This document shows, piece after piece, positions 8,065 through 44,447 of a DNA stretch of 64,000 nucleotides (the first letter of the stretch is position 1; each line of letters opens with the position of its first letter). The DNA is from Dictyostelium discoideum (Eukaryota). Where the stretch lies: assembly GCA_000004695.1 (NCBI GenBank), contig CM000152.2:960001-1024000 (forward strand), given 5' to 3'. Both the position numbers and the translations under genes were made by a program. The notes under the pieces were generated by a model. That model saw only the letters and a list, made by a program, of their open reading frames with translations. It ran no database searches and had not been told where the DNA came from.

Positions 8065-9744
8065 TTATGGTTTAGGAATAAAATCTTTTAATGATTCTGT
8101 AATTGATTGAATATCTAAATTTAAAGTTTTAATGATAAATGAAGCAATATCTATATTATTTATATTACCTCTTAAGATTGGATCAATATAATTATCAACT
8201 ATTTCAGTTTGATGATCTTTTAGACGAGTTTCAAATTTACCTTCAGAGATTGTATCACCAAAGGTGTAGAGATTGACATCCTCACCAGTATGACCACCAG
8301 TGGTGAAACCAATATCAGCATAGTTTGAAACGATACGACCAATCACTTGATTGAGATAATAGGCAGACTTGGTTCTATTGATTTCTTTTAAATCATCTGA
8401 TGTTAATGTGTAACCTGTATTATCGAAAATCAATTTCGTTGGATCAGCACCACCTTTGATAAGTTCTGCCATGAGATCAGCAGATTTATTCACTGTCAAT
8501 AATGTCTCTGGTGACCATGAATATTTTGGATTACCATCGATAACCATTTGATTTGCTAATGTAAGACCACCAGTTTCATGATCTGCTGTCACAATTACAA
8601 TGGTATTACCATCCTTCTCTGCCCATTCTCTAACTAGATTAAAAGTTTGATCAAATGCATCAGTCTCCCAAATCTGAGTGGGTGCGTCATTGATATGAGC
8701 TGCCACATCAATCTTTGAGCCTTCCACCATTAAAAAGAAACCATTTTCATTGTTTTGTGAGATTAAATTCAATGCTTTGGTGGTCATCTCCTGTAGGGAT
8801 GGTTTGGTTGAAAGTAATGTTGGATCTCTTAAACGATCGATTTCCCAAGGTATGTTGTAATCTGCAAAGAGTCCTAAAATTCTACCTGCTTCAACTTGTT
8901 CCATCTCTTGTTTACTCTCAACATACGAGTAGTTGTATTTGCTTGATACAGCATCTTGAAGTGTTTTATTGCTAAAGAATTGTTTACCACCACCCAATAT
9001 CACATCGATCTCCTTGTCCAACAATTGATCGATAATGAATGCCTCGTCATGACGCGTTGCGCTGTGTGCGAAATAGCATGCTGGTGTCGCATCAGAGATA
9101 CGAGTTGTGACGACCAATCCTGTCTTCATACCCAACTTTTTAGCTGCCTCAATGATTGTGCCTGCTGGCTTGCCATTTGCATCGACACCCACTGCATTAT
9201 TATACGTCTTGACACCACTTGCATAGGCCGTTGCCGCTGCGGCACTGTCGGTAACCACACTGTTGCTTGAGTATGTCTTCACTGTGCCCACTATATATGG
9301 GTCTAAATGTAAATGTGCCTGACTTGTACTCTCACCTTTTGTATGAAAACATACTCTTGCCATGGTCAACGCTGCTGGTCCCATACCATCACCAATCATC
9401 ATAATTATATTTGTCTTTTTCTTTGGGCCTTCCCATCCTCTTGGTAATAAAAACACAATCAATAACACAACAGTCACTAGTATTGCCAATGATGTCAATA
9501 TGTAAAAAATTCTCTTATGTGTACTTGTGAATCTTTTCTTGCTATCAAAATCTTCTTCTAATAAAAAGTGGGATACAACTTTACCACCACCACCACTACT
9601 TACACCTGATGATGATGTCATTGGCTCCATTGGAATTGCAGTGGATCCATCCATTTCATCTTTATCATTACCACCACCACCACCACCACCACCACCGCCA
9701 ATACCCGATTCACGGATTGATGATGAATTTGGTGCTTGTTCCAT
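8065..9744 (-). CDS. alp: Alkaline phosphatase (559 aa) with an N-terminal Gly-rich cytosolic segment and one TM helix. Single exon.
   Basis: Alkaline phosphatase family signatures: MMIGDGMGPA..., VTDSAAAATAYASGVKTY (active-site Ser region), VTADHETGG. The uninterrupted 1680-nt ORF is exceptional in 78% AT DNA. The gene symbol is my recollection of the Dictyostelium alp gene and is not verified. Confidence 0.75.
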   Translation of the reverse strand: MEQAPNSSSIRESGIGGGGGGGGGGNDKDEMDGSTAIPMEPMTSSSGVSSGGGGKVVSHFLLEEDFDSKKRFTSTHKRIFYILTSLAILVTVVLLIVFLLPRGWEGPKKKTNIIMMIGDGMGPAALTMARVCFHTKGESTSQAHLHLDPYIVGTVKTYSSNSVVTDSAAAATAYASGVKTYNNAVGVDANGKPAGTIIEAAKKLGMKTGLVVTTRISDATPACYFAHSATRHDEAFIIDQLLDKEIDVILGGGKQFFSNKTLQDAVSSKYNYSYVESKQEMEQVEAGRILGLFADYNIPWEIDRLRDPTLLSTKPSLQEMTTKALNLISQNNENGFFLMVEGSKIDVAAHINDAPTQIWETDAFDQTFNLVREWAEKDGNTIVIVTADHETGGLTLANQMVIDGNPKYSWSPETLLTVNKSADLMAELIKGGADPTKLIFDNTGYTLTSDDLKEINRTKSAYYLNQVIGRIVSNYADIGFTTGGHTGEDVNLYTFGDTISEGKFETRLKDHQTEIVDNYIDPILRGNINNIDIASFIIKTLNLDIQSITESLKDFIPKP

Positions 9745-28829: not shown

Positions 28830-29336
28830 TTAAATAAACGAATAAAAAAAATCTGGTGAAATAAAATCACCTATATCATGTGCGCCAAATGGAACTCTAT
28901 GCCATAACTTTACAAAAAATAAATGGATGTTATTGGAATGGTAAATGATAAGTTTACCTTTAAAATCTTCAAGATGAGATGGATTTACTTTGAGATTTGT
29001 GATTATTATTGGTAAAATATATGCTTCCTTGTAATGCTTTTCTAAATTAATACAATTTTCATAAATGTTTTTTATAGCTTCTTTACCAAGATAGGAACCA
29101 CATGATGAAAATTTAGTATTAATAACAACCATTATATACTTTTTACCAATATGATCATTTGGCAATTCGAAACAAATTCTTATAGAAGTTTGTATTTCCA
29201 CTAGCTAATAAATTAACCGATTTGGTATTATTCGAAGAAATATATACGGTGGTACCTTCAGTTTTTGCTGAGCAAAATTTTATTGCCTTTTGTTAATCTG
29301 TGATTTCCAATTTATCATTGGATCTAAATACATTGT
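28830..29336 (-). pseudogene. Copy 1, truncated: only the C-terminal-domain exon of the B-box/NACHT-like family gene. The exon body upstream of the ORF is degenerate and the copy is cut off at the intron.
   Basis: ORF 28830..29201 is 80-90% identical at the protein level to the C-terminal exons of copies 2 and 3 (...MVVINTKFSSCGSYLGKEAIKNIYENC...WHRVPFGAHD...). Upstream exon sequence carries an in-frame TAA (gat taa caa aag) and a 2-bp deletion relative to copy 3. At about 29331 the sequence jumps from the intron start straight into the shared flank element. Confidence 0.6.
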
Positions 29337-29908
29337 GAAAATGTTAATAAAACAAGTCATAATTTAATGGACGATTTGGATTATCTTTTAAATTAATAAT
29401 GTGAATTTATTCATTCAATTGGATGTCATCATTATCATATAACTCTATGGATTTTAATAATTATTTTCTTTTGTTTTAATTAATTTATTTCCAATATTGA
29501 TAGTTGGTTTTATTTAAATATAAGAATCAAATTCATAAGGTAAACCATATTAAAAAAATGACCAAATATTAAATAAACAAATTAATTTCTTTCAATACCA
29601 TCAATTAATTCTAATTTTAAAGGTGGTGAATGTTTTTAAATAATAAATGTTTTGTTGTTTCATTCAATTGATAATGCTTCTTCTAATGATGTGACACCAG
29701 TTTGGTTGGAACATGAATAAAAAAGGTTTTTCTAATATTAGAAAATTGATTTAAAGTTTTATTATTTTTCCAATTATTATTATTAATAATATTAAAATAT
29801 TTATAAATGTTATAAAAAACATTATCAATTTCATATAAAAATACAAGTTATATTTAGTATTTTTAAAAAATCATCATCTCCATATTTGTGTTTAAATATA
29901 TGAACAAA

Positions 29909-29944
<36 letters not shown>

Positions 29945-30042
29945 ATTTACTAATTTTTAAGTAAAATACAGTTTATACTATTTGTTATTTGTTATTTATT
30001 AATTGAGCATTTCTAAAAATACTCGAGAGATTTTATAATATT
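29337..30042. repeat. Shared ~0.7-kb non-coding flank of the gene-array unit, copy A. Lies 3' of the C-terminal exon of copy 2.
   Basis: Near-identical to 32836..33619 (begins caagtcataatttaatggacgatttggattatc, ends ...ctcgagagattttataatattttataaagaaatgttttctaa). No ORF >60 aa. Confidence 0.6.
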
Positions 30043-32099
30043 TTATAAAGAAATGTTTTCTAATTCTTTGCAGAGGTTTAAATCTGGTGAAATAAAATCA
30101 CTTGTATCATGTGCACCAAAAGATACTCTATGCCATAACTTTCCAAAAAATAAATGGATGTTCTTGGAATGGTAAATGATAACCTTTCCTTTATTATCTT
30201 TAACATGAGATTGTTTTACTTTGAAATTTGTGATTATTATTGGTAAAATATATGCTTCTTTGTAATGATTTTTTAAATTGACACAATTTTCATAAATGTT
30301 TTTTATAGCTTCTTTACCAAGATAGGTATCACAATTTGAAAATTTAGTATAAATAACAACCATTAAATGCTTTTTACCACCACTTAAGTTTGACAATTCA
30401 AAACAAATTCTTATATCGAAGCTTGTTTTTCCATAACCTAATAAATTAACTGAATTGGTATTATTCGAATAAATATGTTCCTTGTTGTCCTCTGTTTTTG
30501 TTAAGCCAAATCTTATTGCATCTTGTGGATCTGTGATTTCTAATTTATCGTTGGATCTAAATATATTCTGAAAATGTTAATAAAATATTCAATATTGAAA
30601 AAAGTGTAATAAAATATGTTTCTGATATCTTACCTATATAACCATTTGGAGGTATGTTGATATAATATAACATTACGTATCTTTACTTCAATAACTGCTA
30701 ACTCATGACTAATATCATTATCCAATGGAAAAAATTTGACTAATTTTGAAATTGTATTATTGCTACTTTCGACAAAGGTGTTGATTTTGTTGAGGATAAG
30801 AATTGCTATATTTTCTTCAAATGGGGTAGATTTAGTATAATCGATTAAAGGGAATTTTGTTAATTTTTCTAAATGTGATATTTTTAATTTTTGTGCAATT
30901 TTATAAAGACCAAAAATTGGTACAAATATGACATTTCCTTCAACCGCTTCGTCATATTGAAGGAATAAGTGGCCAGTGTACGACCAATATTCTATGGTTT
31001 TGTCGCATACTATGGTGCTCCAACTTACTGGTATCCTGCAAATAGAGAGATATAAAATAGTTTCCCAGAATTTATTATCTACTATTTTAACAGATTGAAC
31101 TTTTTTAACCAACTCTATTCCAAGACCACTGATGAAAGATGGAATGTCTATATCGTCTTTTTCAATGTTTTTCATTAATTCTAAATCCAATAACCACTGA
31201 AGGTATCTTGGAATTACACCAAGATCTCTAATAAATATGATAAATAATTTATCTTCTAATATTGTGGTCGTTGGTTTATTCTGGAGTATTGGTATATTAA
31301 ATCTATGTTTGATTATATCTTTACAAGATTCATAGCTTAATGGTGTTAAAGTAATTGATTTATAAGTCCACTGTGAGAGATGAATTTCGTGTTGTAAAAT
31401 TGTTGTGGTACCAGTTAATATTGGAATTATAAAAACATTACTAAGGGAGGCATCAGATTGGTCGGTTCCTTTACATCTATAAAATCCCAACAATTCTATC
31501 ATTTGCTTTATAAAATGTTGATTTTGTGTACAAGCTATTTCGTGTGCCATGGGAAATTCATCCAAGTGGATAAGAATAGAGAGAGTGTTTTTACCTCCAT
31601 GACCATGGTCACGACTATACAACTTAGAAATATAATGCAAAACATTTTTTACAGTAAACAAATGTTTCTCTTCTGTGTATAAATTTAAATTTGATCCAGC
31701 CAATGATGAACCTAAAACTCCTCTGATGAATAATCTTTTTGCGAGAGCCACTTGACAGGTATCTTCTTTTACTTCTTCAATTGAAATTGCATCACCGCCA
31801 CCGTTGAAGTCAATAAATATATACATTAAATTCTTCATTGTTTCTGCTAATTCTTTATTTCTCTTCCATTGATTACTCTTTAAAAAATTCCAACACTCTC
31901 TGCCAAATCTTGTTTTACCAATACCAGAACCAGTTAAACATTGTAAAAAGTAGTGATTTACTCTTTCTTTATCATTTGCAATAAAATAGTTGAACATTTC
32001 AATCAAATAATTTTCGATTTCTTTAAATTGGTTTTCTCTATCTTTTAATGGGAGATCAATACTACTATCAATTGATTTAGTTTCAACCATATTTTGCAT
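30043..32099 (-). CDS. Copy 2, apparently intact: NACHT-like P-loop NTPase with an unassigned C-terminal alpha/beta domain. Exons 30634..32099 and 30043..30556 (minus strand). A B-box-like zinc-finger ORF (32174..32425) lies immediately 5' in the same frame.
   Basis: Walker A FLQCLTGSGIGKTRFG, Walker B LSILIHLDEF, TTR-like motif FIIPILTGTTT (NACHT-type order). 489-aa ORF ends ...KWLY with canonical donor ag|GTAAGA at 30633 (phase 2). Acceptor tttag at 30558-57 joins in frame to RSNDKLEITDPQDAIRFG...KHLMVVIYTKFSNCDTYLGKEAIKNIYENC...WHRVSFGAHD...ISL*. Alternative intron (donor GTAAAG after ...VIE with acceptor ttttcag) is also in frame. Confidence 0.6.
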
Positions 32100-32173
32100 T
32101 AATTTATGTAACTCTTCTAAATCTATAAGTTTTATTAGAGGATTTAAATAATTATTAGTATTTCTAATTAGAA

Positions 32174-32425
32174 TTAATTTTTAATGATGTTAAATGAAAT
32201 ACTTTGAGCTGGCTTTCTTTTTATGAAAAAATTGAATTTAGTTTCTGTAGGTGGAATTGGAGCTTCAATATGTGTTATGGTAGGTAATAAACTAAGCTTG
32301 TGATGAGGGTGATCTATTATGCATTTTTCGCATAATAAAATCTTACACTGTTTACAATATAAAAGTATATCATTTTCTATAAATTGACAATTATGTTTAT
32401 ATGTACTTATATCATCATTTAACAT
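32174..32425 (-). CDS. B-box-like Cys/His zinc-finger ORF (83 aa). Probable N-terminal module of copy 2, separated from the NTPase ORF by two in-frame stop codons.
   Basis: HNCQFIENDILLYCKQCKILLCEKCIIDHPHHK (C-x10-C-x2-C-x4-C-x2-C-x5-HH). Same reading frame as the NTPase ORF that starts 75 nt downstream; only taa-ttc-taa intervenes. Confidence 0.45.
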   Translation of the reverse strand: MLNDDISTYKHNCQFIENDILLYCKQCKILLCEKCIIDHPHHKLSLLPTITHIEAPIPPTETKFNFFIKRKPAQSISFNIIKN

Positions 32426-32835
32426 TTTATTTGAAAAAAAAAAAAAAAAGAGTGTACTATAAAATAAAAAAATGGGTGTGATATAAAATTTATAGTTTTT
32501 CTGAATAAAAGAAAAAAAAAAAAAAAAAAAATAGTAAATTTTATGTCTTTTTTTTTTTTTTTTTTTTTACTTTTTTTGGGTTTTTTTTTTTTTTTTTTTT
32601 TTTTGGAGGGGAATTATTTTTGAAAAACCAGTTTTAAATGATAATAAAACTATTTATTCATCAAATCTTTCTATAAATCCAAATTAAAACTTTTTTAGTT
32701 TGTTCTTTAAAATCTAATGGTACTTCCATAACAGTTCTAGATATACCAACAAATCTTCTTCTCTTTCTAAAATTAATCCAATCACCTAATAAAATTCCCT
32801 CCAAATTTACAAATTCACCATATGGAAATGAAAAT

Positions 32836-33474
32836 GTTATTAAAACAAGTCATAATTTAATGGACGATTTGGATTATCTTTTAAAATTAATAATGTGGAT
32901 TTATTCTTTTCAATTGGATGTCATCATAACTCTATGATAATTATTTTCTTTTGTTTTAATTAATTTATTTCCAAATATTGGTAGTTGGTTTGATTAAAAA
33001 ATAAGAATCAAATTCATAATGTAAACCATATAAAAATGACCAAATATTAAATAAACAAAATAATTTCTTTCAACAACACCAATTAATTCTACCATTTTCA
33101 TTTTCATTTTCATTTTGAATTGTTGATGTTAAATTTTGTATTGGTGGTGTTGAATACATAATATTTGTTTGTTTTAGTTTTGATTTTAAAGGTGGTGAAT
33201 GTTTTTAAATAAAAAATGTTTTGTTGTTTCATTTAATTGATGTTTCTTCTTAAGATGTACCACCAGTTTGGTTGGAATATGAATAAAAAAAGGTTTTCTA
33301 ATATTAGAAAATCGATTTAAAGTTTTATTATTTTCCCAATTATTATTATTAATAGTATTTTTAATATATATAAATGTTATGAAAAACATTATCAATTTCA
33401 TATAAAAATACAAGTTTATTTATTATTTGTAACAAATCATCATCTCCATATTTGTGTTTAAATATATGAACAAA

Positions 33475-33510
<36 letters not shown>

Positions 33511-33619
33511 ATTTACTAATTTTTAAGTAAAATACAGTTTATACTATTTGTTATTTGTTATTTATTAATTGAGCATTTTCTAAAATTACTCGAGAGTTTT
33601 TAAAATATAAATAAATATT
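32836..33619. repeat. Shared flank element, copy B. Carries a 93-bp insertion (33091..33183) identical to 6891..6983.
   Basis: Aligns with 29337..30042 except for the inserted block accattttcattttcattttcattttgaattgttgatg...gttttagttttga. Confidence 0.6.
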
Positions 33620-34975
33620 TTATAAAGAAATGTTTTCTAATCCTTTATAGAGATTTAAATCTGGTGAAATAAAATCACCTATATCATGTGCGCCAAATGA
33701 TACTCTATGCCATAACTTTCCAAAAAATAAATGGATGTTATTGGAATGGTAAATGATAAGTTTACCTTTAAAATCTTCAAGATGAGATGGATTTACTTTG
33801 AGATTAGTGATTATTATTGGTAAAATATATGCTTCCTTGTAATGCTTTTCTAAATTAATACAATTTTCATAAATGTTTTCTATAGCTTCTTTACCAAGAT
33901 AGGAACCACATGATGAAAATTTAGTATTAATAACAACCATTTTATACTTTTTACCAATATGATCATTTGGCAATTCGAAACAAATTCTTATATCGAAGTT
34001 TGTATTTCCACTAGCTAATAAATTAACCGGTTTGATGTTATTCGAAGAAATATATACGGTGTTAGCTTCAGTTTTTGCTGAGCCAAATTTTATTGCCTTT
34101 TGTGAATCTGAGATTTCAAATTTATCGTTGGATCTAAATACATTCTGAAAATGTTAATAAAATTTTCAATACTATAAAAAAGTATAATAAAATATGTTTC
34201 TGATATCTTACCTATATAACCATTTGGAGGTATGTTGATATAATATAACATTACCTATCTTTACTTCGATAAGTGCTAATTCATGACTAATGTCATTATC
34301 CAATGGAAAAAATTTGAAATTGTATTATTGCTACTTTCGACAAAGGTGTTGATTTTGTTGAGGATAAGAATTGCTGTATTTTCTTCAAATGGAGTAGATT
34401 TAGTATAATCGATTAAAGGGAATTTTGTTAATTTTTCTAAATGTGATATTTTTAATTTTTGTGCAATTTTATAAAGACCAAAAATTGGTACAAATATGAC
34501 ATTTCCTTCAACCGCTTCGTCATATTGAAGGAATAAGTGGCCAGTGTACGACCAATATTCTATGGTTTTGTCGCATACTATGGTGCTCCAACTTACTGGT
34601 ATCCTGCAAATAGAGAGATATAAAATAGTTTCCCAGAATTTATTATCTACTATTTTAACAGATTGAACTTTTTTAACCAACTCTATTCCAAGACCACTGA
34701 TGAAAGATGGAATGTCTATATCGTCTTTTTCAATGTTTTTCATTAATTCTAAATCCAATAACCACTCAAGGTATCTTGGAATTACACCAAGATCTCTAAT
34801 AAATATGATAAATAATTTATCTTCTAATATTGTGGTGGTTGGTTTATTCTGGAGTATTGGTATTAAATCTATGCTTGATAATTTATTTACAAGATTCATA
34901 GCTTAATGGTGTTAAAGTAATTGATTTATAAGTCCACTGTGAGAGATGAATTTCTTGTTGTAAAATTGTTAGGAT
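33620..34975 (-). pseudogene. Copy 3, 5'-truncated and frameshifted: C-terminal-domain exon 33620..34133 plus NTPase 3' part 34213..about 34975. It lacks the P-loop half.
   Basis: NTPase ORF 34276..34899 is about 99% identical to residues about 270-489 of copy 2. A 10-bp deletion near 34318 (relative to 30738 in copy 2) shifts the frame. Homology ends abruptly near 34975 (the corresponding point in copy 2 is about 31400). Intron signals GTAAGA and tttag are conserved. Confidence 0.6.
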
Positions 34976-37977: not shown

Positions 37978-38583
37978 ATGAAATTAATATTTTTGGTTTT
38001 AGGTTTAATTTTAACCTTAGGTTTAGCATCTGCTCATCATAGAAATAGACATTCTCATGGTAATTATGATAATAATAATTATAATAATTATCATAATGGT
38101 GGTGAAATTGAAGTTCAAGAAGTTGCTGTTGAAAGTCAAATTGTTGTTGAAGATTATTCATATCATCCATATCAATGCGGTCCATACAATAGATGTAAAT
38201 TAGGTGAAGTTTGTCAAAGAATTGGTGACCATTGTCAATGTTTACCAATTCCATCATACAAGGATATTTGTTTATCTGTAAAGCAAATTGGTGTATGGCA
38301 AGATGGTCAGCGTGGAGGTAAAACCTATTCACAATGGGATATCACAATTGAAAATCATAGTAATAAAAATATTAGAGAAATTTTCATTGGGACTGATTAT
38401 ACTTTTAGATTACGTGATAATTCTTTAAATTCTCTTTGGAATATGGTTATGTTACCAAAAGGAATACTTGCTTTACCATCCGTTCAAAACTCAATTAATG
38501 CTCATGCATCTTATACTTTTGGTTTTATTATTGACGGTCCTCAATCACCAAATCTTCATATTTTAAGTGTATTATTCCAATAA
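37978..38583 (+). CDS. Secreted protein with signal peptide, His/Asn-rich linker, Cys-knot-like segment and a C-terminal beta-rich domain that may bind carbohydrate (CBM49-like).
   Basis: MKLIFLVLGLILTLGLASA signal. Cys pattern CGPYNRCKLGEVCQRIGDHCQC. C-terminal W/Y-rich block WQDGQRGGKTYSQWDITIENHS.... The domain call is tentative. Confidence 0.5.
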   Translation: MKLIFLVLGLILTLGLASAHHRNRHSHGNYDNNNYNNYHNGGEIEVQEVAVESQIVVEDYSYHPYQCGPYNRCKLGEVCQRIGDHCQCLPIPSYKDICLSVKQIGVWQDGQRGGKTYSQWDITIENHSNKNIREIFIGTDYTFRLRDNSLNSLWNMVMLPKGILALPSVQNSINAHASYTFGFIIDGPQSPNLHILSVLFQ

Positions 38584-43638: not shown

Positions 43639-44447
43639 TATTATTATTATTATTATTACATGTAATATAATTCCTTCCGATTGAAATAATGAAAAAATTA
43701 AAAAAATAAAAAAATAAAAAAAAAATAAAAAAAAAATAAAATTTTTTTTTTTTTTTTTTTTTTTTTAATCAAAAATAAATTAAATTGAAAATATTATCAA
43801 CGTTAGATCACAAAACTGTTAAAACTCACATCAACTAATTTTAAAATATAGCTCAACAAATTAAATACTTAAGATAATTTTTTTTTTTTTGGTTTTTTTA
43901 ATCAAAAAATAAATTAAATTAAAAATATTATCAACATTAGATCACAAAACTGCCAAAACTCACATCAACTAATTTTAAACATAGCTCAACAAATAATATT
44001 CTTTGTAATATTTTTTTTTATAATTAAAAAAAAAAAAAAAGAAAAAAAAAAAAAAAAAAAGAAAAAAAGGGAAAGAAAATTAGAAATTTAGAAATTTTAG
44101 GGTTGTACATAAAAATACCAGATTGTACAATTTCTGATTTTTTGTAAATTTAATGTAAAAAAAAACAAATTTATAAATAAGCCACACGATTTTTGATTAC
44201 AACCATTTGATTACAATAAAATTAAAGATTTTTTTTGATATTTTGAAAAGAAAAAAAAATAAAATTTAAAAAAAATAAAATAATTTTTAATGATTTCTTT
44301 TTTTTTTTTATTTTTTTTATTTTTTTTTTTTTTATTTTTAGAACAACCTAGATTTTTTTTTTTTTTTTCACACTACTTTTTTTTTTTTTTTTTAAATATA
44401 GAAATAATAATAAACAAATTTATTTTTTTAAAAAAAAAAAAAAGAAA

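Follow-up and report, generated by a model that had tools for sequence, protein, structure and literature searches.

The question raised by this locus of Dictyostelium discoideum is whether two neighbouring open reading frames (ORFs) of the minus strand, one encoding a small zinc finger and the other a P-loop NTPase, are the remains of a broken gene, two separate genes or parts of a single gene that is still intact. Both are contained in the window, i.e., the whole stretch of 64,000 nucleotides that was analysed, which has a GC content of 23%. The ORFs concerned are the following:

32174..32425, minus strand: ATG-initiated ORF of 83 aa (from the ORF list)
30630..32099, minus strand: ATG-initiated ORF of 489 aa (from the ORF list)
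30043..30396, minus strand: ORF of 117 aa, joined to the preceding one by intron 2 (from the splice model)

The first-pass annotation of this DNA correctly described a zinc-finger ORF of 83 aa ending at 32174 (32174..32425, minus strand) and directly followed by TAA TTC TAA. It had also placed the two ORFs in the same frame, but the distance from ATG to ATG is 326 nt, which leaves a remainder of 2 when divided by three, and tblastn searches with the homologous proteins assign frame -1 to the B-box part and frame -3 to the NTPase part. The distance of 75 nt on which the shared frame was based is indeed the difference between the coordinates (32174 - 32099 = 75), but the spacer between the stop codon and the ATG comprises 74 nt; as identity of frame would need a coordinate difference of 76 (1 mod 3), the value of 75 reflects an off-by-one error. 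Nor are the ORFs separated only by taa-ttc-taa, since the B-box frame encounters eight stops before the NTPase ATG: when read through it gives N-stop-F-stop-LEILIII-stop-IL-stop-stop-NL-stop-I-stop-KSYIN-stop and never enters the NTPase frame. The peptide quoted upstream of the NTPase Met (LEITNNYL...) turned out to be a composite, in which "LEI" belongs to the B-box frame and "TNNYLNPLIKLIDLEELHKL" to the NTPase frame, one base having been read twice. The NTPase frame, which was thought to be open back to the second TAA of the pair, is actually free of stops over the 27 codons preceding its Met, up to the TAA at 32183..32181, and thus shares 7 nt (32180..32174) with the end of the B-box ORF, read in a different frame.

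The most probable explanation (estimated probability about 0.93) is that the B-box and NTPase ORFs correspond to the first two exons of DDB_G0278513, an annotated and intact gene, with an intron of 80 nt between them. A model with three exons on the minus strand produces an uninterrupted protein of 741 aa that is an exact match to EAL68429.1 / XP_642409.1 / UniRef100_Q54XZ3 (DDB_G0278513, D. discoideum AX4; exact-sequence look-up) and also to KAM9948950.1, from an independent chromosome-level assembly. Over its span of 2383 nt the gene is 100% identical to its counterpart in the independent chromosome assembly L008. The two-ORF structure is therefore already known, as both ORFs appear in the reference annotation as exons of one gene. 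DDB_G0278513 is labelled "hypothetical protein" and carries neither an assigned function nor a domain annotation in the sources seen, and a literature search gave no papers on this gene; the 90% cluster that includes the AX4 protein is represented by a fragment of 207 aa (P0022). Two other ORFs of the window are likewise identical to annotated genes, 37978..38583 to DDB_G0278519 and 8065..9744 to the AX4 alkaline phosphatase, which identifies the window as D. discoideum chromosomal DNA of the AX4 type. The parts of the gene model are as follows:

32203..32425, minus strand: exon 1, 223 nt, ending in phase 1 (ORF list, Pfam, and a model that reproduces XP_642409.1)
32123..32202, minus strand: intron 1, 80 nt, phase 1, GTATTTCA...AACTTATAG (stop-free in-frame GT..AG join)
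32154..32161, minus strand: candidate branch-site motif ATACTAAT, inside intron 1 and 31 nt upstream of the acceptor AG
32100..32173, minus strand: interval between the two ORFs, made up of the last 51 nt of intron 1 (32173..32123) and the first 23 nt of exon 2 (32122..32100)
30634..32122, minus strand: exon 2, P-loop NTPase and helical middle region (motifs conserved across 63 relatives)
30557..30633, minus strand: intron 2, 77 nt, phase 2, GTAAGATA...ATATATTTAG (needed to reproduce the 741 aa)
30043..30556, minus strand: exon 3, C-terminal domain, stop codon included (splice model, tblastn)

According to this model, exon 1 encodes a B-box-like zinc finger and a linker (...FIKRKPAQ), while the stop of the B-box ORF (32176..32174), the TAA-TTC-TAA and most of the interval 32100..32173 are located inside intron 1. 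The donor of this intron is a/GTATTT at 32202 and the acceptor is AACTTATAG, with its last base at 32123; the GC content is 15%. Removal of 32202..32123 gives a join that reads ...KRKPAQNLEELHKLMQNM... without a stop and links ...KRKPAQ-N-LEELHKLMQNM..., the 23 nt from 32122 to 32100 completing the split codon N and then encoding LEELHKL before M82, so that the junction peptide is ...FIKRKPAQ-N-LEELHKLMQNMVETK.... Intron 2 (GTAAGA...TTTAG) links the NTPase ORF to the 117-aa ORF. With regard to length, the 80 nt of intron 1 are within the normal range for D. discoideum, whose introns have a median length of 104 bp (mean 132.6 bp; PMC4683709), and are similar to the 77 nt of intron 2.

All GT..AG pairs able to join the two ORFs without a stop were enumerated. 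The join from 32202 to 32123 is the only one in which both sites are conserved in all eight genes compared (see below) and which agrees with the annotated proteins; the 20 other stop-free joins listed, with donors at 32355, 32348, 32346 and 32292, delete zinc ligands or conserved residues. The first-pass annotation had considered a very short intron starting at the same a/GTATTT in phase 1. The donor was correct, but the length of 39 nt and the acceptor were not, the true acceptor being 41 nt further on: as 39 is a multiple of three, an intron at 32202..32164 stays in the B-box frame and reaches a stop after LEILIII, and it is not found among the stop-free joins. The first AG is the acceptor chosen by the annotations and is presumably also the one selected in vivo; the AGs located 6 nt and 9 nt downstream (introns of 86 nt and 89 nt, respectively) also keep the frame. 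From these features of the DNA, 32203/32122 would be the junction used in the cell. The strongest and common donor consensus is GTAAGT, from which the GTATTT of intron 1 departs. Branch sites conform to the consensus UACUAAC, and ATACTAAT is similar to it. This motif is situated downstream of the acceptor of the 39-nt intron, and within an otherwise indel-rich intron ATACTA is invariant in the eight sequences and ATACTAAT is present in seven of them, which makes it a plausible branch site.

All the homologous proteins are gene predictions, and concordance between annotations does not constitute independent proof; for this reason the DNA of the loci was compared, by aligning the first ~400 nt of seven homologous loci with the window gene (eight genes). 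The annotated homologues, from other D. discoideum strains and from D. cf. discoideum strains, are 66-89% identical, several of them having 720-760 aa, and in them a single polypeptide comprises both B-box and NTPase, joined at KPAQ-N/S-LEEL. None of the eight aligned genes departs from GTAT at the donor or from TATAG at the acceptor, and the intervening sequence has lengths of 80, 88, 89, 89, 88, 90, 76 and 74 nt that fall in all three classes modulo 3, meaning that the two ORFs do not stand in a constant frame relation across these genes. Once the interval is removed, seven of the eight genes have a continuous frame again; the exception is P0002, which carries a deletion of 4 nt in exon 1. 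In its evolution the interval behaves as non-coding DNA: one of its nine distinct indels is a multiple of three, versus 10 of 11 in the flanking exons, and its GC content is 15-19% versus 22-28%. Conservation at the protein level extends to the seven codons that precede M82 (LEELHKL / LEELRNL / LAELHGL), which indicates that translation does not simply start at M82. Conserved ends, restoration of the frame, non-coding evolution and a length in the range of the species, which are among the features of a spliceosomal GT-AG intron, are all found at this site.

In the exception mentioned above (L004:3001-3420, P0002 of ACTFIW), the 4-nt deletion lies just upstream of the conserved donor and shifts the frame, and the deposited model stays open by means of a different splice (...FIKRKLKLHKLMENM...); this gene is either a decaying copy or the product of an assembly error. 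Another annotated relative (P0001 of ACTFIR, L001:10001-12479) displays an internal repeat around the P-loop (ANHYFLQCLTGSEIKKLKERANHYFLQCLTGSGIGKT), and at its locus a simple two-exon splice meets stops at the repeat; this points to a short duplication that the gene prediction accommodates by an additional intron.

On the basis of this model, the minus-strand transcript would lose an intron of 80 nt (phase 1) and another of 77 nt (phase 2), both of the GT-AG type, and the mRNA would encode a single protein of 741 aa with a B-box-like zinc finger, a P-loop NTPase and a restriction-endonuclease-like C-terminal domain; the TAA codons that follow the B-box ORF would be intron sequence and never be translated. 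The first-pass annotation was thus right in assigning both ORFs to one coding unit and in considering an intron that joins them, but a recent split by nonsense mutations does not hold, given that the frame identity is absent. The apparent split ORF is the result of a one-base counting slip combined with a typical short, TAA-rich Dictyostelium intron.

That the locus is a pseudogene, in which a once-continuous B-box-NTPase ORF was recently broken by nonsense mutations, is very improbable. The TAA TTC TAA placed directly 3' of the B-box ORF is what such an event would leave, and decay does occur at this locus, as evidenced by shortened and frameshifted gene copies on both sides (33174..34970 and 28849..29352). 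However, the two ORFs are in different frames, with the eight stops described above between them, and splicing yields an intact product whose 741 aa are in line with the length of the orthologues (720-760 aa). The comparison with orthologues and paralogues that had been proposed to see whether the ORFs are contiguous elsewhere gave a stop-filled interval of 74-90 nt in 8 of the 8 related genes, in three classes modulo 3, from which an ancestral continuous ORF cannot be reconstructed. An even lower probability, close to nil, is assigned to a fusion of the ORFs without splicing, by a one-base assembly error or by programmed ribosomal frameshifting within the 7-nt overlap at 32180..32174, where the NTPase frame is open to 32180 and a single shift would indeed join them. 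Resequencing had been suggested as a check for error; the gene is identical in the independent chromosome assembly, and the 80-nt interval is identical in six Logan contigs from six sequencing runs, which excludes a sequencing or assembly error. Those contigs, from a strain that is 99.2% identical, carry the interval unspliced, base for base, and are colinear with the genome including the upstream flank; they look genomic and so have no bearing on splicing. As to frameshifting, the relative frame of the ORFs varies among the paralogues (intron length modulo 3 of 0, 1 or 2), and in 7 of the 8 genes the interval contains stops in all three frames, so that a conserved frameshift could not work.

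It is quite unlikely as well that the locus comprises two genes, one for a B-box microprotein of 83 aa and one for an NTPase whose translation starts at the ATG at 32099. Both ORFs start with ATG, M82 is conserved in the eight sequences and distant homologues from Cavenderia are devoid of the B-box; against this, the long homopolymer A/T tracts that precede the B-box ATG (32430..32600) are absent from the 74-nt spacer, neither the GT nor the TATAG varies, the conserved in-frame codons preceding M82 would be unexpected in a 5'UTR, and the fused model is given by two independent annotations. A different proposal accepts the intron as real and adds regulation of its splicing. By this account, retention could release the 83-aa B-box peptide as a minor isoform, given that a retained intron stops the B-box frame at once (32176..32174); this seems unlikely, though less so than the readings above. 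The same applies to a minor isoform 2 aa shorter that could arise from the tandem acceptor 6 nt downstream, an in-frame alternative AG (32117) being present in 7 of the 8 sequences. Nothing in the sequence demands either isoform, and they would supplement, not replace, the single intact gene with a spliced 80-nt intron, which is the interpretation followed below.

With respect to the protein encoded by the spliced gene, the N-terminal ORF has four Cys/His pairs and matches the Pfam model zf-B_box (PF00643) weakly, with a score below the cut-off (E 2.5e-4; 21.6 bits versus a gathering cut-off of 24.1 bits). The same model matches 7 of 11 family members, with a best E of 5.8e-6, and the four pairs (H11/C13, C24/C27, C32/C35 and H39/H42) are kept in the paralogues as judged by eye. 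The B-box would serve as an interaction or targeting module.

The NTPase contains a Walker A motif (GSGIGKT, residues 139-145), a Walker B motif (HLDEF, residues 260-264, within ILIHLDEF) and TGT at 311-313. The name "NACHT-like", by which it had been designated, is not supported by profile searches: the 489-aa ORF matched no Pfam family at E <= 1, NACHT included, and among 63 relatives AAA_22 was found in four, AAA_16 in one and NACHT, at 1e-3, in none. Searches of the NTPase with NCBIfam and PADLOC gave nothing significant, the lone match being that of P0006 to MraZ (E 0.037), and a sequence search of the PDB with the family profile matched no solved structure. On the other hand, a full-library HMM search with the family alignment detected 441 cluster representatives at E <= 1e-3, most of which begin to match at the NTPase, i.e., after the exon-1/exon-2 junction. 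A Pfam Crinkler domain (E 1e-21) is present at the N-terminus of one relative, P0150, and the remainder of that protein aligns with the profile of the D. discoideum family at a probability of 98% in hhalign (E 2.7e-13, 557 columns).

Conserved in the family are GxGKT/S, a Walker B with DE, the GT motif and, towards the C-terminus, the pattern E...D...QxK, which is reminiscent of nucleases of the restriction-endonuclease fold; the residues of this pattern occur in 38 (E), 55 (D), 50 (Q) and 48 (K) sequences, with 58-62 of the 63 aligned relatives having a residue at each position. The window protein has H564, D618, Y640 and K642 at these sites, that is, two of the four positions are replaced (H564 and Y640), which makes a nuclease activity of DDB_G0278513 doubtful. 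An AlphaFold2 model built from an 11-sequence alignment was poor (mean pLDDT 52.7), with values below 50 for residues 1-30, which include part of the finger, and for residues 491-636 in the C-terminal region. Foldseek searches with this low-confidence model gave ORC1/ORC5/Cdc6-type AAA+ proteins (E ~1e-4) and Card1/Can2 (E 0.01-0.6), a hint that the NTPase fold may resemble that of the ORC/Cdc6-type AAA+ proteins.

The C-terminal modules of Crinkler/CR proteins have been described as a combination of P-loop NTPase, HTH and REase (Zhang et al., 2016, as summarised in PMC5289972). Judged by profile similarity, the NTPase and the C-terminal region of the window protein belong to a module that is also found behind a Crinkler header, and "Crinkler-type AAA+-like P-loop NTPase" fits better than "NACHT-like". 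By homology to such NTPase-nuclease modules, the NTPase would regulate a C-terminal domain that targets nucleic acids. No match to the Crinkler header was obtained at the N-terminus of the window protein, and as a B-box-like finger occupies the position of the ubiquitin-like header, it is not strictly a Crinkler protein. A homolog from Cavenderia fasciculata, DFA_01524 (P0008), has no B-box in its N-terminal ~80 residues, a region with no Pfam match recorded among the tested members. The region terminates in ...RIYVSSP, reminiscent of HVLVVVP, the end-motif of Crinkler headers, and this suggests an exchange of the head domain between lineages close to the site of intron 1.

The gene is accompanied by partial copies of itself. 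The segment 33174..34970 (minus strand) is a tandem duplicate, 92% identical to 29605..31404, which covers the 3' 1.8 kb of DDB_G0278513 and its flank. The B-box exon, intron 1 and the P-loop are not part of this duplicate, whose tblastn frames switch -1/-2/-1; it is probably a pseudogene fragment, although two "hypothetical proteins" (207 aa and 175 aa) are annotated for it in another assembly. On the other side, 28849..29352 (minus strand) is 86% identical to 30080..30585, a part of the nuclease-like C-terminal exon 3, with a change of frame (-2/-3). In the strain ACTFIR a single full gene without fragments is found at this locus, and ACTFIR and ACTFIW each have a second full-length paralogue (P0005 and P0003, respectively). 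P0003 lies in an insertion of ~3.9 kb (L002:9533-13474) between positions corresponding to 43705 and 43907 of the window, which contains ~200 nt and no insertion at 43705..43907, evidencing a presence/absence polymorphism of a family member. The partial duplicates beside the gene and the second paralogue in an insertion absent from the window indicate that the locus varies between strains.

The discovery value of the gene structure itself is small, since it is already present in the AX4 reference annotation. A practical lesson for genomes with ~23% GC is that, where a stop-rich stretch of ~70-100 nt lies between adjacent ORFs, these should be examined as possible exons and their frames computed before pseudogenisation is invoked. 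Of modest additional value are the placement of an uncharacterised "hypothetical protein" in the Crinkler-type NTPase-nuclease module family, its unusual B-box head and the variation in copy number between strains. Tentatively, the combination of a B-box head, an NTPase-nuclease module and strain variation might reflect a fast-evolving function in conflict, immunity or self/non-self recognition in this social amoeba. In such a function the B-box would replace the usual header as a targeting or oligomerisation module.

Compared with known systems, the window gene matches DDB_G0278513 (XP_642409.1, Q54XZ3) in all 741 residues, in its span and in both introns, without any difference, and intron 1 resembles the canonical GT-AG spliceosomal introns of Dictyostelium in being short, AT-rich and filled with TAA and in varying in length out of frame. 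With the NACHT/STAND NTPases the protein has in common a Walker A of the type GxxGxGKT, a Walker B of the type hhhhDE, a multidomain organization and an N-terminal adaptor-like domain; it differs from them in that its NTPase has no NACHT match and that the fold matches of the weak model are ORC1/ORC5/Cdc6-type AAA+ proteins. As far as the summary of the Crinkler/CR modules describes them, the family of the window protein shares with these the Walker A, the Walker B and the C-terminal E..D..QxK, and in the window protein a B-box-like finger takes the place of the ubiquitin-like header.
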